NCBI GenBank assembly: GCA_009885955.1
Contig: VFJS01000042.1
Span: 4,623-68,622 of the forward strand
Direction of reading: 5' to 3'
Source: Spirochaetia bacterium
Lineage (GTDB): Bacteria > Spirochaetota > UBA4802 > UBA5550
Length of the DNA: 64,000 nt
Part shown: positions 27,144 to 45,858 of the stretch, one piece after another
How the letters are laid out: every line of letters starts with the position of its first letter
How positions within the stretch are numbered: position 1 is the first letter of the stretch
Position numbers and translations under genes: made by a program
Notes under the pieces: generated by a model
The model's input: the letters and a program-made list of their open reading frames with translations, nothing else
Told to the model about the DNA's origin: nothing
Databases searched by the model: none

Positions 27144-28403
27144 ATGCAGTCCTATTCCCTGGAAATATTTATCATCATACTTTTTGCGCTGTTATCCGCT
27201 TTTTTTTCAGCATCGGAGACAGCCCTGTTCTCCCTCAAGAGGGCCGACCTCCACAGGTATTCCCATTCGGAATTTTCTCTACTCAGGCAGATTGCCGCAA
27301 TAATGACAAAGCCCCAGAATATCCTTATCACAATATTAATCGGAAACCTTTTTGTGAACTTCATCATTTCGGCGCTTACGACGAAAATCATGCTTGACCA
27401 CTACAGTGAATACGGGCATTTTATTTCCATCGGGATTGTAACGCCGATCATGATCATATTCTGTGAGATATCCCCGAAGATCATCTCCATAAATTTCTAT
27501 GAATCCGTTTCAAAAAAGATATACCCCCTTCTCAATATATTTCATAAATTATTTTTTCCCCTGAGGATTGTCATTTTTCTGGCAATGGACTTTATGATCC
27601 GGGCATTTAAGCTGAAGGGGCAGCAGAAGAAAATTACCGAAGATGAACTCGATATCGCCATAAATGAAGGCGAAAAGGAGGGCATCATTGACAGGGAAGA
27701 GGGGGAATTCATGAAGAATGTTCTCCGCTTTTCAAGGAAAAACGGCGCCAATATCATGTTCCCGAGAAACAGGGCCGTATTCATATCCGTTGACGCAACC
27801 ATAGAAAGCGCAATGAAGGTATTTCTTGATTCCGACATCATCAGGGCTCCGGTATACAAGGATGACATTGACCATGTCGTCGGCATGCTCGATTCAAAGG
27901 AGCTGATCCCCTATTTTCTCGGGATGAAAAAAGCAAAGCTTATCAAAAGGTTTATCCGTAAAATTGAATTTTATCCTTCTTCCATCGAGCTGAACGACCT
28001 CCTGAATGAATTTCTGGAAAAGCGGATCCAGCTTGCCGTGATGGTTGATGAATACGGCGGCACCGACGGGATTGTCTCGCTGAACTCAATACTTTCAGAG
28101 CTCATGGGCAAAAAGTTCAGCAAGTGGGATGTGGATACCAGGCCCGATATAAGGATATCGGCGGATGATGTCTCGGTTATTTCCGGAGAGATGCAGATAG
28201 ATGATTTCAACTTTTTTTTCGGGCAGAAACTCATGAGCAGCGATTCGGACACCGTGGGCGGGTATATTATCGAAAAAGTAAGCAATTTTCCGAAGAGGGG
28301 GGAAAAGATTAAAATAGGGGGATTAACCCTCCGCGTCAGGTTCATCAGAAAGAACAAGATTGAAACAATAGATGTTATTCACAGGAAAACCAGGAAGGAG
28401 TGA
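27144..28403 (+). CDS. CNNM/HlyC/CorC-family transporter (DUF21–CBS pair–CorC_HlyC; TlyC-like)
   Basis: Four N-terminal TM helices, a CBS pair and a C-terminal transporter-associated domain. Confidence 0.85.
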   Translation: MQSYSLEIFIIILFALLSAFFSASETALFSLKRADLHRYSHSEFSLLRQIAAIMTKPQNILITILIGNLFVNFIISALTTKIMLDHYSEYGHFISIGIVTPIMIIFCEISPKIISINFYESVSKKIYPLLNIFHKLFFPLRIVIFLAMDFMIRAFKLKGQQKKITEDELDIAINEGEKEGIIDREEGEFMKNVLRFSRKNGANIMFPRNRAVFISVDATIESAMKVFLDSDIIRAPVYKDDIDHVVGMLDSKELIPYFLGMKKAKLIKRFIRKIEFYPSSIELNDLLNEFLEKRIQLAVMVDEYGGTDGIVSLNSILSELMGKKFSKWDVDTRPDIRISADDVSVISGEMQIDDFNFFFGQKLMSSDSDTVGGYIIEKVSNFPKRGEKIKIGGLTLRVRFIRKNKIETIDVIHRKTRKE

Positions 28404-28406
28404 TTA

Positions 28407-29663
28407 TTGGAAACGTATTATTACAAGCTCATGGTCCCGGTATTGTTCCTGCTCTCACTGTTTTTTTCAGGGGCTGAAACGGCAGTAGTATCAGCAAACA
28501 GGATGAGGCTTGAATCTTTTTTGAGAAACGGGAATAGAAGGGCAGGCAGGGCCATTTTTATCCTGGATAACATTGAGGACGCCGTTGGGATGCTCCTCAT
28601 AGGGAATAACATCGCAAACATCGCTTCTACTGCCTTCATCACATACATCGGGACAAAGGAGTTCATGCTCAATGAACAGCAGCTGGTGGGAGTGACAGTG
28701 ATACAGACCGTGATCTTTCTTATATTCTGCGAAGTGACTCCAAAGGTTATAGCCAGGTCCAAGTCGGAAAAATTTCTTATGTTTTTTTCCTATCCGGTGA
28801 TCATGCTCATGATCATCTTCAAACCCTTCAACAAGGTTTCTCTCTTCTTTGCAAAGATGGTGAAAAAAGCCATGAAGGTCAAGGAATCGAGGAATTTAAT
28901 AGTCAGGTCAAAGGATGAACTCGACTTCCTTTTTAAACTCGGCCACAAGGAGGGGCTTTTTTACGAAGACCACCAGGTATATGTCTCGGAGATACTTTCT
29001 TTCAAGGACCTGAGGGCAATAGAGATTATAACGCCCACTGTGGATATTATTTCCATCAGCCTGGACGGAACCCTGAAAAAGCTCGTTGAGATCATTGATA
29101 ACAGCAGTTTTTCAAGAATTCCCGTGTACCGGGACAGGGTCGACAACATCATCGGCTATATTTTTTACCGGGATATTTTAAAAAAGAAAGGGATACGTTC
29201 ACTATCAGAAATAATGACAAGGCCCTATTATATACCCTCGTCAAAGAACATATTTGAACTCTACCAGGAGATGTATGAAAACTCAATTCCCATTGTTTTT
29301 GTAGTCAATGAACATGGAGGTGTTGTGGGGATGATCACCAAGGAGGATATCGCCGAGGAGGTTGTCGGCGAGATTCAGACCAGCGACCACCACGAAGGTG
29401 AATTGATCATGATGGCCAACGAGAGGAAATACATTTTGTCAGGGGATCTGGATATAGAGTATTTTCAGAGATATTTTTCCATTCCCGTTGAGAAAAAGGG
29501 ATTCGAGACAATTGCAGGATTCATGAGCTATCACCTCAGGAAGATACCTAAAAAAGGCGACCGGCTCAGGTATGGAAACTGTACCTTTATTGTGGATGAA
29601 GCTACAGAGCGTTCCGTGGAAAAAATAATAATTCTTCTTGATGAGAAGAACGGGAAGCCCTGA
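28407..29663 (+). CDS. second CNNM/HlyC/CorC-family transporter paralogue
   Basis: Same architecture as 27144..28403; the two form a tandem paralogue pair. Confidence 0.85.
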   Translation: METYYYKLMVPVLFLLSLFFSGAETAVVSANRMRLESFLRNGNRRAGRAIFILDNIEDAVGMLLIGNNIANIASTAFITYIGTKEFMLNEQQLVGVTVIQTVIFLIFCEVTPKVIARSKSEKFLMFFSYPVIMLMIIFKPFNKVSLFFAKMVKKAMKVKESRNLIVRSKDELDFLFKLGHKEGLFYEDHQVYVSEILSFKDLRAIEIITPTVDIISISLDGTLKKLVEIIDNSSFSRIPVYRDRVDNIIGYIFYRDILKKKGIRSLSEIMTRPYYIPSSKNIFELYQEMYENSIPIVFVVNEHGGVVGMITKEDIAEEVVGEIQTSDHHEGELIMMANERKYILSGDLDIEYFQRYFSIPVEKKGFETIAGFMSYHLRKIPKKGDRLRYGNCTFIVDEATERSVEKIIILLDEKNGKP

Positions 29664-29679: not shown

Positions 29680-30027
29680 TCAGCCCTTCTTTATCATCGG
29701 CCCCAGGTCCCTGCCGCCGAATATATGGACATGGAGATGAAAGACCTCCTGGTGGGCGTCCCTGCCGTTATTGATGAGGATCCTGTATCCGCTTTCGTCA
29801 ACATCTTTGATCTTCACCACCTCTTTTACTGCAAGGAAGATATCCGACATGATTGCGCTGTTTCCGCTGTTGATATCATTTAAATCAACAATGTGTTCCC
29901 TGGGTATAACCAGTGTATGGGCCGGTGTCAGGGGGTTGATGTCGTCAAAGGCAAGAACCTTTTCATTTTCATAGACTTTTTTTGCCGGTATCTGCCCGGA
30001 AGCAATTTTACAAAAAATACAATCCAT
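29680..30027 (-). CDS. HIT-family (histidine triad) hydrolase
   Basis: MDCIFCKI N-terminus and HLHVHI triad. Start at 30027 with a GGAGACA SD; the track's longer ORF upstream has no coding support. Confidence 0.85.
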   Translation of the reverse strand: MDCIFCKIASGQIPAKKVYENEKVLAFDDINPLTPAHTLVIPREHIVDLNDINSGNSAIMSDIFLAVKEVVKIKDVDESGYRILINNGRDAHQEVFHLHVHIFGGRDLGPMIKKG

Positions 30028-30043
30028 AGATGTCTCCAGAAAT
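29916..30043. repeat. left copy of a 128-bp direct repeat (HIT start codon, SD and first 37 codons)
   Basis: Matches 32583..32710 by eye with a single mismatch (ctgcccgg vs ctgtccgg). Confidence 0.85.
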
Positions 30044-30290
30044 TGCACGCCCTCACCCCCGACTCGTCGAGCGCTTTTCGAACATCGAACAGCAGGATGC
30101 GGTGAATGCCGAAACGCGACAGGACGTCGCAAAAAGCTTTGGCCTGTCCGCGCTCGACACTAAAGCATCCTGCTTGTCGGCAGTGCGCTTTTTCGACCTC
30201 CTGTCGGCGCACTGCACTAAAGCATCCTGCTTGTCGCCTCTCCCAGAATGGGGCGAGGGGAGTCTTTGGCATGTTAATAAAATTTCATTC
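30044..30290. mobile_element. GC-rich MITE-like structured repeat element, copy 1
   Basis: Termini GCCCTCACCCCC ... GGGGCGAGGGG. Internal 22-bp direct repeat CACTAAAGCATCCTGCTTGTCG occurs twice, plus inverted partners. Related sequences at 38514..38694 and 41270..41631. Confidence 0.55.
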
Positions 30291-30496
30291 ATTCACTCAG
30301 AAAATAAAGGATACTATTTCAATCAGAATTAATCAAGCATTTTTTGTTTTAGGAAAAAAAGGAAAAGTAAAATATTTTATGGCCATTTACTGAACTGAAA
30401 GAAATTTGGCTTGACACATGAGAATATTTTGATATATTGTTGACGATGTGTGATACTTCCGTATTGCAAAATATAAAATTAATTTGGAGGAATTGA

Positions 30497-30929
30497 ATGA
30501 AAATATTGTATCAATTAATGAAAAAATTCTCTCTCTCTCTCTCTCATAATCATTTTTTCCAGTTTTAATATCATCGGTTGTGCTACAATAACTAGAGGAA
30601 GTGAAGAAGCATTAGCGATAAATTCAAAACCTACAGGTGCAATGGTTCTAATTAAAAATACTGAAGATGGGACTGAAATATTTAAAGGATTAACTCCAAC
30701 CGCTGTAAAACTTAAAAGAAAAGGTAATTATTCAGTAAGAATTGAAAAAGAAGGTTATGAAACATTGTTAATTAATGTAACAAATCAAAAATCAGATACA
30801 GGAGGGGTAGCAACTGCTGGAAAATGTCTTGCTGGAGGCTGTATAGGATTTGGAATTGACCATAGTACAGGTGCAGGATTAAATCTAATACCCAATCCAA
30901 TAAATGCTGAATTAGTTATTACAAAGTGA
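30497..30929 (+). CDS. phase-variable PEGA-domain lipoprotein gene, currently frame-shifted (OFF) within a (TC)9 tract in its signal peptide
   Basis: GGAGG is 6 nt before ATG 30497. A 23-codon ORF stops at 30566. The downstream frame encodes lipobox IIGC then a PEGA-like domain; one extra TC unit fuses the two frames. The track lists only the internal ORF 30642..30929. Confidence 0.65.
30528..30545. repeat. (TC)9 dinucleotide simple-sequence repeat
   Basis: Counted directly as tctctctctctctctctc. Confidence 0.95.
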
Positions 30930-30937
30930 CCAACGCA

Positions 30938-30975
30938 TCGGCTAAAGCTGAAGGCTTCTGTTTCGGCTTTAGCCG
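30938..30975 (+). terminator. stem-loop (CGGCTAAAGC / GCTTTAGCCG, 10-bp stem) 9 nt after the lipoprotein stop; weak U-tract
   Basis: Inverted repeat read from the sequence; no clear U-tract follows. Confidence 0.4.
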
Positions 30976-31325
30976 AATAAATGTCATCCTCAACCTGAAA
31001 ATTGTCATCTACGGGTTCTTTTCCTTGCTCCTCAATATATTATAGGATGATCTCATCAGTTATATTTCATGATGATACTACAAAATATCCCCGAGTCCAC
31101 AGATGACGACCCCAAAATTGATGACTCAGTTCAATGTATTCTGTTAATAATTTGATGGCGTAACAAACGCCTGACCCTATAAAAAAAGAGCATTCTGATA
31201 AATAACATGCGGCAGCTGACAGCAGCCGGATGAGAAGGTTTTGGCTGCCGCGTTTTCTGATGATTATTAACTTGACATTTCCATTTATTTATGAGAAATT
31301 GATGAAATGGATCTATGGAGGAGTT

Positions 31326-31529
31326 ATGATAATTGAAAATCGAAATAACGAAATAATAATTCGCATTCCGGCGAATATTGACATAAATATATCTCAGGAT
31401 TTTATTGAGTATGTGCATGTAAAGAGTATTCTTTCCGGGAGCAGCGCCTCACAGGAAGATATTGAAAAAATTTCTGATGAAATCAATAAATTATGGTGGG
31501 AAAAAAATAAAACCAGGTTTATTAAATGA
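31326..31529 (+). CDS. putative antitoxin (small protein upstream of and overlapping a PIN toxin gene)
   Basis: 67 aa. GGAGGAG SD. ATGA overlap with the PIN gene. No family recognised. Confidence 0.45.
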   Translation: MIIENRNNEIIIRIPANIDINISQDFIEYVHVKSILSGSSASQEDIEKISDEINKLWWEKNKTRFIK

Positions 31530-31966
31530 GGGTTGTCATTGACACCAATATACTCATAAGCGCTTTAATCAATCCAGCAGGCAAAGAAGCTGATATACTT
31601 TTAAATCCTCTTTACGAATATGAAAAATATAGCTGCTATTTTCTATTTGTTGAAATATTAAAACATAAAGATAAACTTCTTAAGTTTTCGAGTTATAAAG
31701 AAGTGGATTTTCTCGAGCTATATTATTGTATCTTAAGAAAATTGAAATTTATCAACGAAGAGCACATCCCTTTCCGTATCTGGGAGCAAGCTTTATTCAT
31801 TACAAAAGATATAGATGAGAATGATACTCCGTTTGTAGCTCTAACTATTTACTTGGATGGTATTCTCTGGTCGGGTGATAAAAAAATTATGAAATGTCTT
31901 GAAAAAAAGGATTTTAATAAGTATATAACGACAAAAGATTTGATCGTTTTATTGGAAAAAAGGTAA
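31526..31966 (+). CDS. PIN-domain (VapC-like) toxin
   Basis: MRVVIDTNILISAL N-terminus with acidic residues at DENDTPFVAL and LWSGDKK. Confidence 0.7.
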   Translation: MRVVIDTNILISALINPAGKEADILLNPLYEYEKYSCYFLFVEILKHKDKLLKFSSYKEVDFLELYYCILRKLKFINEEHIPFRIWEQALFITKDIDENDTPFVALTIYLDGILWSGDKKIMKCLEKKDFNKYITTKDLIVLLEKR

Positions 31967-31973
31967 ATATTTT

Positions 31974-32201
31974 ATGAAAATACAATATTTTCCTGAAACA
32001 GATTCCCTTGGGATCATGTTTTCCGAGAAGCCTGGCTCCGACTCCTATGAAATAGCGGAAGGAATCACGGTTGATATTGACGATAATAGCAGGCCAGTTG
32101 GTATAGAGTTTGAATCCGCGAAAGGCAGGATCGATCTTTCTGATATCATTCTAAAAGTGCCAACGACACATATCAGTTATGATTCCGTAAAAATAAAATA
32201 A
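31974..32201 (+). CDS. DUF2283-family small protein
   Basis: MKIQYFPETDSLGIMFSE ... VGIEFESAKGRIDLSD matches the DUF2283 pattern. Confidence 0.6.
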   Translation: MKIQYFPETDSLGIMFSEKPGSDSYEIAEGITVDIDDNSRPVGIEFESAKGRIDLSDIILKVPTTHISYDSVKIK

Positions 32202-32477
32202 ATCCTCCTTTTTTTGCTTAACCATAGGAATATTATTAGTAAGTAATAAGACTCATGTTAACGCGGCAGTCGGGCGAGCAAGTTTTGGCTGCCGCATACT
32301 CTATTCTCCACCGGTTTTCAACATATCAATTCAACATGATGGACCCATTGTTATCTTGACATTTCCATTTATTTTTATGAAATTGATGGTATGGATGTTG
32401 AAAAATGTATTTACCCGGCCAATAAAAACATGGATAATTCCCTTATAAAAATTTGTTATTGAGCATGGAAGGTCAAA

Positions 32478-32715
<238 letters not shown>

Positions 32716-32814
32716 TTAATATAGATAACCGATTAGAAATTACTCTGATATCAATTGCTCTAAGTAGTTACACCGGTTATATACATCAATTTGATTATTT
32801 TTAAATATGAATGC

Positions 32815-34308
32815 CTACTTTGTCCACTTATTTTCCAGAATATTATTTATTGAATGATGTACCTTTACTGCGGTCACTGTGCATGGCGCTTCAGCGACTA
32901 CCCTGGAGCACACTTTGCCATGGAAACTGAACACTGTCGAATACCCGGGCGCGCCGATAACTATGTGGTCGACATGGTTTGACCTGGCAAAATCTATTAT
33001 TGCCTCTGCCGGGTCCGGGGATTCCAGGACATGAAAGGATATTTTTCCCGGCGGAATGTTGAGGCCCGCGGCCCACTGCTTCAGTTCAATGAGCCTCTGG
33101 AGATGGAGGTTGTGGCCTTCATTGTCTATGCCGGTGTCAATTCCCACCCTGAGTGTTTTCCGCACGGTAATGCAAGTCAGCCTGGCGCCTCTTTCCGAAT
33201 CAAAAACACGCTGGACAGCTTTTATCAGCGCACTTTTCATCTCTTTGACCCCGTGATGGGTGTCAACAGCAGCCATGATGATGGGGACCGTATCGAGATG
33301 GCGCTCAAGGGAGAGGGCCGTCGGCGCGCCAGTCCTAAAGTAGTTCATCCACCTGCCCGCCGAGGTCCAGAAGGTGTTTCTCCCTGTCCTGTCTGCCCGG
33401 GAAGTGAGAGGCACAGTGTCCGGGTTTTTCAGATCAAAGGCAAGCTGAGCCGCGCTGCCGTGCCGTTTCATGGGATCAGCCTCCAGGCACCGGAGAATGA
33501 TCTCCTGGAGCCAGTCAGGGCAATTTTTGTTTATGGCCTTCGGAGGGTCGGGCAGCTGATAAAGCCTCCTTTTAAATCCTGTTATGCTCACCGGGCTTCC
33601 AAAGGGGAGTTCGCCGGTAATGAGCTCATACAGTATAACGCCAAGGGAAAATATGTCGCTCCGGTGATCGTTCCGCATGCCCAGTACCTGTTCCGGTGAA
33701 ATGTACGGTGCAGTCCCCATGGGGAGATGGTATATCTCCGCCATGAGGTCAGGAAGCTGTTCATGCCTGGACAGCCCTAAATCGATGAGCACCGCATCGC
33801 CGTTTTCACGGAAGAGCACATTGTCCGGAGTGAGATCAAAGTGGATGATATGCTGGCGGTGGATCTCGTGAAGGGCGACGGCAATTTTTGAGCCTATGCC
33901 GGCCGTCTCATCAGGGGGCAGAACTCCCTTTCCAAGCCTGTTTTCCAGGGATTCTCCCGGGATATGCTCCATTACAATGTATGGCTGGGCGGTAAAATCA
34001 CCGGAGGATATGAAACGCGGCACATGTATTCCGGTAACTTCAGGGAGTATCATGAGCTCTACTTCAAAGCATATGATTGATGCCGGATTGTCACCTTCGG
34101 TGAGGCGGGGTATCTTCATTACAGCCGGGATCGATACATCATCACGAGTGACGCTCCAAATGGCGGACATACCGCCGAAGTGTACCAGATTACCAATACT
34201 GAATCCGTCAATCAGCGATCCCGGTTTAATCATTTCGTTATGCATGAGTATTTGTCTCCAATTATATGAATCAGCAGGGGTTGACTGAAAAGTAAGCCAC
34301 AGTGACAC
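32815..34308 (-). CDS. Hanks-type Ser/Thr protein kinase fused to a C-terminal universal stress protein (Usp) domain
   Basis: Kinase motifs: AVMKI (VAIK equivalent), HFDLTPDN (catalytic loop variant), DLG, SPE. Usp-like C-terminus (IIMAAVD...DHIVIGAPG). Confidence 0.85.
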   Translation of the reverse strand: MSLWLTFQSTPADSYNWRQILMHNEMIKPGSLIDGFSIGNLVHFGGMSAIWSVTRDDVSIPAVMKIPRLTEGDNPASIICFEVELMILPEVTGIHVPRFISSGDFTAQPYIVMEHIPGESLENRLGKGVLPPDETAGIGSKIAVALHEIHRQHIIHFDLTPDNVLFRENGDAVLIDLGLSRHEQLPDLMAEIYHLPMGTAPYISPEQVLGMRNDHRSDIFSLGVILYELITGELPFGSPVSITGFKRRLYQLPDPPKAINKNCPDWLQEIILRCLEADPMKRHGSAAQLAFDLKNPDTVPLTSRADRTGRNTFWTSAGRWMNYFRTGAPTALSLERHLDTVPIIMAAVDTHHGVKEMKSALIKAVQRVFDSERGARLTCITVRKTLRVGIDTGIDNEGHNLHLQRLIELKQWAAGLNIPPGKISFHVLESPDPAEAIIDFARSNHVDHIVIGAPGYSTVFSFHGKVCSRVVAEAPCTVTAVKVHHSINNILENKWTK

Positions 34309-41269: not shown

Positions 41270-41631
41270 CTTTCATGCTGATTTTTGGTCCATGCACCGA
41301 ATGGGTTTTGTGCGGGCTGCCACACGGTAAGTATGTCCAGTGGCCTGGACTGGTTCATGATAGGGGGCGTCTCCCGACGGCCGCCCCCTATCGACCCCCG
41401 CGTCGCTCTTGCAGAGGGCTGACTTTTCTTTACATCGACTTGTTTGTGTCGCCTGCGGATGGGCCTCCTGCCCGTCCTCGGCGCATTTCGCTCGACATCC
41501 TGTCTCGCTCACTGGTTGTCAGAAACATGATTATTTCTGCTACACCCCCCTCTCCTGCCAGGAGAGGGGACGGGGGTGAGGTCACGGATGTCCGAAAAGC
41601 GCTCGACGGGACAGAGGTGAGGTCAGGAACT
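41270..41631. mobile_element. GC-rich structured repeat region, copy 3 of the same family (reverse orientation; composite)
   Basis: Shares CGTCGAGCGCTTTTCG(A/G)ACATC with copy 1 and CCTCACCCCCG...GGAGAGGGG(G)TGTAG with copy 2. Contains perfect hairpins GATAGGGGGCG/CGCCCCCTATC and CCCCTCTCCTG/CAGGAGAGGGG. Confidence 0.5.
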
Positions 41632-42972: not shown

Positions 42973-43014
42973 AGTGCCGACGATTTTTTGCACGTCCTGT
43001 GCATCGTCGGCACT
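42973..43014. other. perfect 12-bp inverted repeat (AGTGCCGACGAT / ATCGTCGGCACT) with 18-nt structured loop
   Basis: Read directly. A 3x 9-bp tandem CACGAAAnn lies at 42823..42849. Confidence 0.5.
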
Positions 43015-43339
43015 GCGACATCCTGCCGGGAGTGTTCTTCATTGATGATTCAGGAAACTATTTTTTCTTTTCTTGCTGACAGGGAAATCAAAAAATTGAA
43101 TAAAACACATTTTATTATTAAAGTGGTCGAATCCTTATCGCACATCCTTTGCGGCTTCGCCGTTTGTTTATTCTTGAACATTATCATCCATTCCTCATAA
43201 ACAAGAGAACAGAAAATCAATTCCTCCATGACGGAAATTCGGGTTTCTAAATTTGCATAAAATTATTGACATTAATTAAATGGTTAATATATTAAAAATA
43301 TACAGAAGAGGTATGTCTTTTCATTTTGTGGGGTGATGC

Positions 43340-43436
43340 AAATTTTAAGGCAGTGTGTATGGATTTGCTTCTTTGTAATGAATATGCAGTTTCCGATATA
43401 CACCATTCTGTCTCTTGAATAGGGTTGCATGAAATA
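43340..43436. repeat. composite intergenic repeat: unit A (AATTTTAAGGCAGTGTGTAT) plus unit B (TGAATATGCAGTTTCCGATATA...GAAATAC)
   Basis: Unit A recurs at 44530..44549. Unit B recurs at 45629..45687 (first 22 nt identical, about 75% overall). Confidence 0.7.
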
Positions 43437-43512
43437 CTATATGTTTTTGTAACGTTTTCAGGGATCAGTTTTTTATCATTTATTTTGGGAATTTCCAATA
43501 TGTCAAATTCTG

Positions 43513-44427
43513 ATGAAATTTAAAATCACTCCTGCAGTCCTATTTTGTGCCTCTTTCTCCAGCGCTCCTCTCATGGGGCAAAACGTTGGAGGAACAACAT
43601 CCTCCATTCAAATCGACTGGTGGGAGATGTTCCCATTTATATGTATCCCCATCGCATTTTTTCTCTTCTCTGCTGTGGTCTCCGCCGATGCCGAACGGGA
43701 AAAAAAGCGCACGTTCATTCTTTCCGCGCTTATGGTTTTTGTTGGATGTGCATTATTCTTTGTTTCGGCGATTTCAGATCAAAAAACAGTCAGCCTGACC
43801 GCTGCTATTATGGGCCTGATCTATGCCGGTACCGGACTATGGTTTCTTTCCTTAAAAGACAGGTATTCTTCTAAATTCAAAGCTCTCCGTGAACTTCCTT
43901 TAACCGCTCAAAAGTACGGCTTAACGTATATTGAAAGCCAAACCTTCGATACTCCCGGAGACATGCAAGGCATGTATGCCAACTACAAAGTGGAAATATT
44001 GCCCGATGGCAATTCCAGGGACGGACGTTTTATTGTTTATCTAAAAAAAAATATCGGCAAATGTGAAATTTCATTTTCTAAAACGGTGTACAGGCCCGCG
44101 GAGGGTTTAGTTGAATTTTATACCGGCAATTCATTGTTTGATTCGTGCTTTAAAACCCGCTATGCGACGCAAAATTTGGCCGAGAAGCTTCGAACTGCCA
44201 GGGATAATCTCGCTCCAATTTTAAATTTTATTAAAAAATGGCAAATCACGCACTGGTGGATTTTCGGTATATGGGGTCGCAGCTGGCTTACTATCGAAGG
44301 AAACACAATCAGGTATTCCGATGTTCCTGTCAAAGGCGGCCCCTATGTTCTATCGGCTGCGCGCGTAGAACAGGTCCTGCCGGATATCATCGCCCTGGCA
44401 CGAACCTTGGAGAAAATCGCTGATTAG
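43513..44427 (+). CDS. hypothetical membrane protein
   Basis: Three N-terminal TM helices and a soluble C-terminal domain. No SD before 43513, so the start is uncertain. Confidence 0.4.
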   Translation: MKFKITPAVLFCASFSSAPLMGQNVGGTTSSIQIDWWEMFPFICIPIAFFLFSAVVSADAEREKKRTFILSALMVFVGCALFFVSAISDQKTVSLTAAIMGLIYAGTGLWFLSLKDRYSSKFKALRELPLTAQKYGLTYIESQTFDTPGDMQGMYANYKVEILPDGNSRDGRFIVYLKKNIGKCEISFSKTVYRPAEGLVEFYTGNSLFDSCFKTRYATQNLAEKLRTARDNLAPILNFIKKWQITHWWIFGIWGRSWLTIEGNTIRYSDVPVKGGPYVLSAARVEQVLPDIIALARTLEKIAD

Positions 44428-44586
44428 GCGTATGAAAAAAAAATTCTTGATGCCGACGGAACATACTGTAAATTAGAGAACATTTATTTGAGGGGAGTTA
44501 AATTCCAGAAGTAGGGAATCAATTTGACAAATTTTAAGGCAGAGTGCATATATCTGCGGAAATTTATAGTTATAATAGGAGGCCTT

Positions 44587-45609
44587 ATGAAATATGTTCT
44601 TGCTCTCATATTTATTATGAGTATTACGGTTCAGTTGTATCCGCAAATCAGCGAGACGAAAGAAAAAACTACAGACGCGACTGAACCCGTTGCAAATTCC
44701 AACGCAGGCATATCAATCATTCCTTTTACCTCCTGGCGTTTTATTAATTTCGGAAATGAAGACCTCAAGTATACATTTGATAATACAAAGTCGACGACAT
44801 ATGAGACAAATTTCCACATAGGATATTTTTCGTTTGGCGGGGCTGCCACGGTAAACGATATGGCATTTGGTAAAGTTGACAATGTCCTGGGATATCTGGG
44901 CTTTTCGTCATTTTCTCTCAAAATGTCACAGGCCCATATGCGGGGGACCGGCACCTGGTCGGGTGATCAAGTGGGAGGCATGAAAAGTAAATTTTCATTT
45001 GATAACACGATCCGTAATTATGATCTTATTTATAATGGAGGCAATGATGTACTGGAAGGGCTGAAGAGCTGGTATGCAGGCATTTCATATACCAGGCTGT
45101 CAATGCCCATGGAGTTTCAAGTTAGTGTTCATCCCCCGAACAGAAAATATCACGAGGATGGCAAATCCGTATATGATGAAAAATTTTCCCTCGAATCTTT
45201 CGGGATAACATTCGGATTTGACATGTTGAAAGATAAATCGCGCAGGCCCGGCTTGGATGTCTTCGGAGTATCCCAGGACAGATTCGGCATTTATAATACA
45301 TCTTCATTAAGCAATGCCGCAGTATCCAGGTTAATTGTTCTAAATCCGGGATATGGTTCCCCTAAAAAAAACGGGAGGAGCTGGTTTCCTAACACGCCTG
45401 CTTATCTTGACAATGAATCGGCAGTTGGTCTCAGCTGGACACATGTATTTCCTGAGGGGTGGATTATTTTCGCGGTCGGCTATGATCTGATCTGGGGTTT
45501 GATTGGCGGACCATATGAAACGGCCAGTATGGGTAGAATGGGGATAGAGGGAAGCGCGAATATGTTTTTCCGTCATGGAATAATATTCCGGGTGTATGGG
45601 GCATGGTAA
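44587..45609 (+). CDS. hypothetical secreted/outer-membrane protein
   Basis: Start at ATG 44587 with AGGAGG 4 nt upstream. Signal peptide MKYVLALIFIMSITVQLYPQ. Beta-rich composition. Confidence 0.45.
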   Translation: MKYVLALIFIMSITVQLYPQISETKEKTTDATEPVANSNAGISIIPFTSWRFINFGNEDLKYTFDNTKSTTYETNFHIGYFSFGGAATVNDMAFGKVDNVLGYLGFSSFSLKMSQAHMRGTGTWSGDQVGGMKSKFSFDNTIRNYDLIYNGGNDVLEGLKSWYAGISYTRLSMPMEFQVSVHPPNRKYHEDGKSVYDEKFSLESFGITFGFDMLKDKSRRPGLDVFGVSQDRFGIYNTSSLSNAAVSRLIVLNPGYGSPKKNGRSWFPNTPAYLDNESAVGLSWTHVFPEGWIIFAVGYDLIWGLIGGPYETASMGRMGIEGSANMFFRHGIIFRVYGAW

Positions 45610-45628
45610 TATCCCTCCTTATTTGTCA

Positions 45629-45687
45629 TGAATATGCAGTTTCCGATATAGTTCATTCTGGCCCATGAATGGGGTCTTCTGAAATAC
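45629..45687. repeat. second copy of repeat unit B
   Basis: See 43378..43436. Confidence 0.7.
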
Positions 45688-45858
45688 ATTCAGTTTTAAA
45701 GATTCCCGGGGTCTGTTTTTCTCATTTATACGCGCAGGTTCCTTGAAAGAAAAGAAAAATACCTGGTTCTTTGAAGGAATTCATATTGGGAAAAATCAGA
45801 GCTCCCCCCCTATCCTCCAGACAGGAGGAAATACAAATGGGGGAGCAAGGAGGATTTA

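Follow-up and report, generated by a model that had tools for sequence, protein, structure and literature searches.

We find that a gene for a small PEGA-domain lipoprotein appears to be disrupted by one thing only, the length of a dinucleotide tract in the part that codes for its signal peptide. This gene belongs to a 64-kb window, by which we mean the whole stretch of DNA that was analyzed. Its tract is a perfect (TC)9 at 30528-30545 on the plus strand, occupying codons 11-17 of the open reading frame (ORF) opened by ATG 30497. The best reading, to which we would give an even chance of being right, is that this is a slipped-strand phase-variable lipoprotein gene caught OFF. We favor it because the tract is long and pure, its site in the signal peptide should tolerate in-frame changes in length, the rest of the gene is intact, and the same design is proven in oipA of Helicobacter pylori. 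The arrangement is mechanistically textbook; what is mildly unusual is the probable environmental host, together with a protein family that has no member of known function.

The TC tract and the reading frames around it

The features of the locus, and of the insert in which it lies, are given below in window coordinates.

29916-30043, no strand assigned: left copy of a 128-nt direct repeat, comprising the first 112 nt of the HIT gene (minus strand) and 16 nt upstream of it (Pfam HIT domain)
30044-32582, no strand assigned: 2.5-kb low-GC insert, 2,539 bp (GC bins, Pfam matches, repeat boundaries)
30411-30438, plus strand: promoter-like site TTGACA, 16 nt, TG-TATATT (consensus match only)
30486-30490, plus strand: Shine-Dalgarno sequence GGAGG, 6 nt upstream of ATG 30497 (sequence read directly)
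30497-30568, plus strand: truncated 23-codon ORF of the n = 9 (OFF) frame, MKILYQLMKKFSLSLSHNHFFQF*, with its TAA stop at 30566-30568
30528-30545, plus strand: (TC)9 simple sequence repeat, coding in the ON frame for (SL)n of the signal-peptide hydrophobic core (sequence)
30546-30929, plus strand: rest of the lipoprotein gene in the +1 frame, with the end of the signal peptide, the lipobox IIGC, the mature protein, and TGA 30927-30929 (translation, homologue alignment)
30612-30794, plus strand: PEGA domain, a beta-sandwich (Pfam PF08308; AlphaFold2)
30795-30875, plus strand: Gly-rich segment with two Cys (GGVATAGKCLAGGCIGFGIDHSTGAG), conserved across the PEGA lipoprotein family
30938-30976, plus strand: strong hairpin immediately past the stop, which lacks a T-run but could act as a terminator (RNA fold)
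32583-32710, no strand assigned: right-hand copy of the 128-nt repeat (99% identity to the left one), an orphan 5' HIT fragment (sequence comparison)

An earlier note on this DNA had described the GGAGG, the start at ATG 30497, and a 23-codon ORF running through (TC)9, and we found each of these in place. A second ATG at 30518 is in frame with the first and could serve as an alternative start, with a more canonical n-region (MKKF). Further upstream, the promoter-like site matches the consensus at 11 of 12 positions and has the extended -10 TG, which gives it the top score within 29900-32800, in a scanned region whose total of such sites was not above the shuffle expectation. At the other end of the gene, RNA folding of 30925-30990 gave -29 kcal/mol (z = -6.5), and none of 200 shuffles was as stable.

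Beyond the tract, it is the +1 frame that continues. This frame is free of stops all the way to TGA 30927-30929, reading ...SLSLSLIIIFSSFNIIGC|ATITRGSEE..., with the Cys codon at 30579-30581, which amounts to 127 stop-free codons downstream of the tract in DNA of ∼33% GC. It contains no ATG, GTG, or TTG before 30642, so the lipobox part can be translated only via ATG 30497 or ATG 30518, and we could rule out an independent start for the +1 frame upstream of the lipobox. When the tract length was changed in silico, n = 7, 10, and 13 each gave a single ORF (142, 144, and 146 amino acids, respectively), so that one TC unit more or two fewer restores the gene, as the earlier note had worked out. 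The lengths n = 5, 6, 8, 9, 11, and 12 gave a truncated ORF in every case, with a stop after 23 codons at n = 9 and a still earlier one, after 14-18 codons, at the other truncating lengths tested.

The frameshift also has a consequence for annotation. The public protein for the locus (P0001, in NCBI and Logan) is only the internal 95-aa ORF at 30642-30929, which begins at Met 50 of the repaired protein, and the frameshifted 5' part with the signal peptide is missing from the public annotation. The public record thus overlooks a frameshifted 144-aa lipoprotein gene behind the 95-aa ORF.

The tract itself exceeds chance. It is the sole dinucleotide repeat of more than 5 units in the 64-kb window, where 200 first-order Markov simulations of 64 kb led us to expect 0.37 tracts of at least 5 units and reached a maximum of 6 units. 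A scan of 909,744 bases of unrelated bacterial loci found no dinucleotide tract of at least 6 units. In prokaryotes, selection generally acts against mono- and dinucleotide repeats that reach ∼10 bp or more, and the enrichment of repeats near N-termini has been taken as a signature of phase variation (PMC3315296). Since (TC)9 stands alone in 64 kb, there is no sign here of a genome-wide set of contingency loci.

The repaired lipoprotein and its family

With the frame repaired, the ORF begins with a positively charged n-region (MKK), followed by a hydrophobic core and the lipobox IIGC, whose Cys aligns with the invariant lipobox Cys of the homologues; the mature protein includes the stretch CATITRGSEEALAINSKPTGAMVLIK.... 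Residues 40-100 match the Pfam PEGA family (PF08308; E = 5.5e-9, 36.2 bits against a cut-off of 20.8). The lipobox, PEGA domain, and Gly/Cys-rich tail that the earlier note had recognized in the next frame are therefore borne out, by translation, by Pfam, and by a Gly-rich segment with two Cys, respectively. The product is predicted to be exported and lipid anchored, a small beta-sandwich protein and a component of the envelope.

The AlphaFold2 model of the repaired protein (mean pLDDT, 77.7) has a signal helix at residues 2-26 and a beta-sandwich at residues 37-99, with mean pLDDT of 88-97 per 10-residue block over residues 41-100. After these come a Gly-rich loop at residues 104-124, where pLDDT is below 50, and two C-terminal strands at residues 129-139. 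A Foldseek search of the PDB returned only generic transthyretin-like or CnaB-like sandwiches, none at an E value of 1e-3 or better, and NCBIfam gave no significant match (the best was LEPBI_I2678, with 18 bits against a cut-off of 240). The literature on PEGA-domain lipoproteins that we found consists of proteome lists, with no characterized member.

The family is very large. Among 1.84 billion cluster representatives, a profile search picked out 187 proteins at E ≤ 1e-30, 3,429 at 1e-10, and 12,690 at 1e-3, the weakest of these last including unrelated multi-PEGA proteins, and a word-indexed protein search gave 3,427 homologues at 1e-10. Nearly all homologues are named "PEGA domain-containing protein" or "hypothetical protein" at their source, apart from two stray labels, "translation initiation factor 2" and "uncharacterized protein YceK." In species-representative genomes, there are 252 matching loci, including those of Paracoccus, Lysobacter, relatives of Thiothrix, Opitutaceae, and Poribacteria; the window's own genome is absent among the 80 of these loci that were returned. 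Clustering of neighbors at 80 homologous loci revealed no conserved neighbor gene, and its two largest clusters were antisense shadow ORFs of the PEGA gene itself. At the window locus, the tblastn match covers 30579-30926, and the 64-kb window holds no paralogue of the gene.

The homologues carry much of the argument for a frameshift. All 76 homologous genes scanned are contiguous, and none is out of frame: each has an in-frame signal peptide ending G-C-A-T-I-T-R-G-[ST], a PEGA domain, a Gly-rich segment, and a PNP motif, although the length of the signal peptide differs among them. These homologues have an in-frame signal peptide leading into GCATITRG, from which it follows that the window gene is frameshifted and that its true N-terminus lies upstream of the tract. 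The window copy retains 23 of the 23 invariant residues of a 46-sequence alignment, where the tract has to be repaired before the ATG is in frame with its N-terminal part. Among these residues are G28, C29, A30, T33, R34, and G35 around the lipobox Cys; G103, A108, G109, G114, G115, I117, G118, and D122 in the Gly-rich segment; and N134 and P135. In all, the window copy shares with its family (41-60% identity) the signal peptide, lipobox Cys, ATITRG[ST], PEGA beta-sandwich, Gly-rich segment, and PNP, and it differs from the 76 homologues scanned in having the repeat tract and the frameshift.

None of these 76 genes has a dinucleotide repeat of at least 5 units in or near the signal-peptide region. 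The earlier note had named homologues that lack the repeat as one half of what would speak against a switch, reads with exactly nine units being the other, and on the first half the evidence goes against it: with no repeat in 76 homologues, the closest relative included, the switch is not a trait of the family. On the sequences compared, the tract is private to the window copy. That closest relative (L003, on a WOR-3 metagenome-assembled genome [MAG] chromosome, 60% identity) has a short signal peptide without a repeat, MRCIYGIVTLVALIGC. It shares with the window protein a Cys-x4-Cys pair in the Gly-rich segment (AGKCLAGGCIG in the window protein, AGNCIAGGCIG in L003, 5230-5330), and both are without the PEGA-domain Cys residues (…C.TPC…) present in most family members. 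The Cys pattern puts the two in a subgroup, perhaps one with a relocated disulfide.

The host is probably an environmental, uncultivated member of the Spirochaetota not known as a pathogen. RecA encoded in the window has 76-80% identity to RecA labeled as from Spirochaetota MAGs and up to 87% to metagenome proteins, and the window also contains an M23 peptidase gene of the treponemal TP_0781 Pfam family. The earlier note had gone on to suggest a surface antigen; this label may suit the protein, though its family has no characterized member and its host is apparently an environmental spirochete rather than a pathogen.

Proposed phase variation and its alternatives

The locus is a single gene, encoding a small lipoprotein of ∼115 mature residues with (TC)n inside the hydrophobic core of its signal peptide. 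In the proposed switch, slipped-strand mispairing at replication would alter the length of (TC)n. At n = 3k+1 (7, 10, 13), ATG 30497 would be in frame with the lipobox, and the lipoprotein would be made, exported, and lipidated (ON); at any other n, translation would stop early and no exported protein would result (OFF). The sequenced allele, with n = 9, would be an OFF allele. In-frame changes in length are probably harmless at this site, the h-region of a signal peptide whose length varies among homologues. For this to be a working switch, the tract would have to change length at a high rate in the organism, ON cells would exist in the population, and switching would be selected, for example, as an escape from phage or predators that recognize an envelope lipoprotein.

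This design has precedents. The H. pylori outer-membrane genes hopZ and sabB have a CT-repeat switch in the signal-peptide region, and H. pylori is not known to have canonical mismatch repair. In the same species, oipA (hopH) is turned on and off by CT repeats within the 5' stretch that codes for its signal peptide, with length polymorphism recorded in hundreds of strains (29 CT patterns), and sabA and babA are also under slipped-strand mispairing (PMC10564699). The CT-repeat genes of H. pylori are like the window gene in that a CT or TC tract in the signal-peptide 5' coding region sets the frame by its length, the OFF allele yields a short peptide, and the tract codes for Ser/Leu-type residues of the core. 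However, they encode Hop-family beta-barrels of a host-restricted pathogen, whereas the window gene encodes an unrelated small PEGA lipoprotein, probably of an environmental member of the Spirochaetota. Their length polymorphism is documented, while the window locus has n = 9 in every assembly. The earlier note had matched the window gene to the Helicobacter switches, and the match is good for the mechanism, as oipA illustrates; it does not extend to homology with the Hop family. We rejected membership of that H. pylori outer-membrane family because a Pfam scan (E up to 1) gave PEGA only, and we rejected a beta-barrel because the AlphaFold2 model is a small beta-sandwich instead.

Two other systems are worth comparing. 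In Neisseria, the opa genes encode beta-barrel adhesins and form a multigene family. Their CTCTT pentamer repeats lie where the signal peptide is encoded, and their switching has been shown experimentally. Like the window gene, opa has a pyrimidine-rich repeat in the hydrophobic part of the signal sequence, with translational ON/OFF control by slipped-strand mispairing; the unit is a pentamer in opa and a dimer in the window. Treponema pallidum, from the same phylum as the window's host, carries poly-G tracts close to tpr genes, and the effect of these tracts is mostly on transcription. There, as proposed here, a simple-sequence switch acts on envelope proteins, but the T. pallidum tracts are homopolymeric G, whereas the window tract is a dinucleotide repeat inside coding sequence.

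Does the tract vary? Two distinct Logan contigs, L001 (common to three samples, including SRR8670877) and L002 (SRR8670876), carry the 95-aa ORF, as does the NCBI contig of 136,891 bp. All of them have n = 9, and the Logan contigs come from four runs (SRR8670876, SRR8670877, SRR8670878, and SRR9952633). Assemblies report the majority allele only, and the neighboring run accessions probably belong to one study, so the uniform n = 9 is compatible with a minority of ON cells. Ten exact look-ups of ON-length proteins (n = 4, 7, 10, 13, and 16, from either ATG) found none among 15 billion proteins, and a protein search found no near-identical full-length protein. In JGI metagenome contigs, an exact-pattern scan with the 29 nt downstream of the tract found no copies, and a protein-guided scan of JGI metagenomes found only relatives of ≤53% identity over the matched segment. 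A search for literature citing the sequencing runs found none. Thus, of the earlier note's central claim, a phase-variable gene switched OFF, the part that stands is a frameshift by (TC)9 at the signal-peptide region; variation in length was not seen, either in the assemblies or as a protein of ON length.

The main alternative is that the gene is simply a recent pseudogene, and to this we give rather less than an even chance. A dispensable, horizontally acquired gene would have suffered a one-unit slip at the TC run, been fixed OFF, and begun to decay; its tract might go on slipping, but with no selection for switching. The single tract length in all assemblies and the failure to find an ON variant fit this account, as do the absence of the repeat from homologues (0 of 76) and of any other contingency-type repeat from the window. 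The setting fits as well, since the 2.5-kb low-GC insert, with its toxin-antitoxin-like genes, the truncated ORF 32478-32606, and the orphan HIT fragment, is a place where decay is common. However, the gene has no second lesion. Its promoter-like site, GGAGG, ATG, lipobox, all family-invariant residues, and the hairpin past the stop are intact besides the frame, and 127 codons remain open. Under ordinary purifying selection, a gene would moreover not readily build up a pure nine-unit tract, since every one-unit step shifts the frame, and old pseudogenes would be expected to show interrupted tracts. A frameshift at such a tract is also intrinsically reversible, which means that "pseudogene" and "switch" differ only in whether selection acts.

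Could the missing unit be an artifact, with a real tract of (TC)10, an intact gene, and one unit lost by stutter or miscall? Dinucleotide repeats are prone to one-unit stutter loss in amplification, and the source is probably a metagenome-assembled genome. Even so, we think this unlikely, because Logan contigs made with another assembler from at least four runs have exactly n = 9, in agreement with the NCBI contig. A single short read also spans the 18-bp tract with room to spare, and stutter products, normally in the minority, leave the consensus unchanged. Recoding of the n = 9 allele into full-length lipoprotein, by programmed +1 ribosomal frameshifting or transcriptional slippage, is very unlikely: repetitive tracts do cause RNA polymerase or ribosome slippage in some systems, but known bacterial transcriptional slippage needs homopolymers, at known +1 sites (prfB) a specific slippery codon must be combined with a stop and an internal Shine-Dalgarno sequence, we found no stimulatory element at the locus, and 76 of the 76 homologues scanned are simple in-frame ORFs.

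Returning to the phase-variable gene, a fuller scenario can be drawn in which a free-living, uncultured member of the Spirochaetota keeps a selected contingency locus, with a minority of ON cells, TC slippage under pressure from phage or predators, and a switch acquired with a small mobile insert. Taken as a whole, this scenario is speculative, and we lean against it. To our knowledge, dinucleotide-repeat phase variation has so far been described almost only in host-adapted pathogens. If the scenario is true, this classical mechanism reaches environmental lineages, and the PEGA lipoprotein family would gain its first phenotype, e.g., as a phage receptor. If the tract switches, it offers a clean, easily tested contingency locus outside the usual pathogens and a handle on a lipoprotein family of thousands; if it does not, what we have is an ordinary frameshifted accessory gene.

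The low-GC insert and other repeats in the window

The gene had been placed by the earlier note in an accessory island, which is a fair description of the low-GC segment at 30044-32582 given its base composition, the 128-nt direct repeats on either side, and its gene content. Over 30001-33000, the 1-kb bins have a GC of 0.32-0.375; both bins just to the left are at ∼0.45, and the next one to the right is at 0.55. According to Pfam and the ORF list, the insert contains the PEGA gene, a 99-aa ORF with a PIN_2 gene, a DUF2283 gene, and a truncated ORF. The two copies of the repeat differ by one mismatch and have sharp edges. The right copy cuts off the 42-aa ORF at 32478-32606, and a minus-strand ORF of 39 residues lies there at 32575-32694. 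We found no integrase or transposase inside the insert, which looks like the product of a single homologous crossover that joined a circular DNA with a HIT fragment to the chromosome, rather than of a transposon or integrase event.

The flanks are chromosomal, with housekeeping genes for CheA, PriA, a class A PBP, CNNM/CorC paralogues, HIT, and a Ser/Thr kinase with a Usp domain, as well as rubrerythrin, a LeuA/CimA-like protein, PFK, and RecA. The CNNM/CBS/CorC_HlyC transporter genes are tandem paralogues at 27144-28403 and 28407-29663, directly upstream of the HIT gene.

The two Logan contigs, although from different runs, both begin exactly at 30451, ∼30 nt before the Shine-Dalgarno sequence. 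An identical start in two runs implies a branch in the assembly graph, and the stretch up to ∼30480, with the promoter and 5' leader, may be polymorphic or may recur at another place in the genome. Within the window, we found no second copy of the promoter region.

Several other repeats occur in and around the insert, and a search of the 64-kb window for Rfam families gave none. One module is present in two copies (31222-31312 and 32266-32396; 78-86% identity), each with a GC-rich hairpin GCAGCCGG...GGCTGCCGC followed by TTGACATTTCCATTTATTT. Each copy precedes a small ORF, the 99-aa partner of PIN_2 in one case and the 42-aa ORF 32478-32606 in the other, and the modules look like repeated cassette promoters of toxin-antitoxin-like genes. 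Short GC-rich repeats of 36-37 nt (CCTGTC.GCGC....CACTAAAGCATCCTGCTTGTCG) mark the left edge of the insert and come back ∼12 kb away: those at 30143-30179 and 30200-30236 recur at 42996-43032, and the one at 30051-30086 recurs in inverted orientation at 41587-41622. All of these may be REP-like or miniature elements.

Farther to the right, 30-nt and 80-nt repeats (79-83% identity) at 43339-43447, 44528-44557, and 45618-45697 surround three genes, the first two of which have no Pfam match. ORF 43513-44427 is membrane-protein-like, and ORF 44524-45609 has a hydrophobic start resembling a signal peptide, which by eye makes it a candidate outer-membrane protein. The 30-nt and 80-nt repeats may be regulatory regions shared by these genes.
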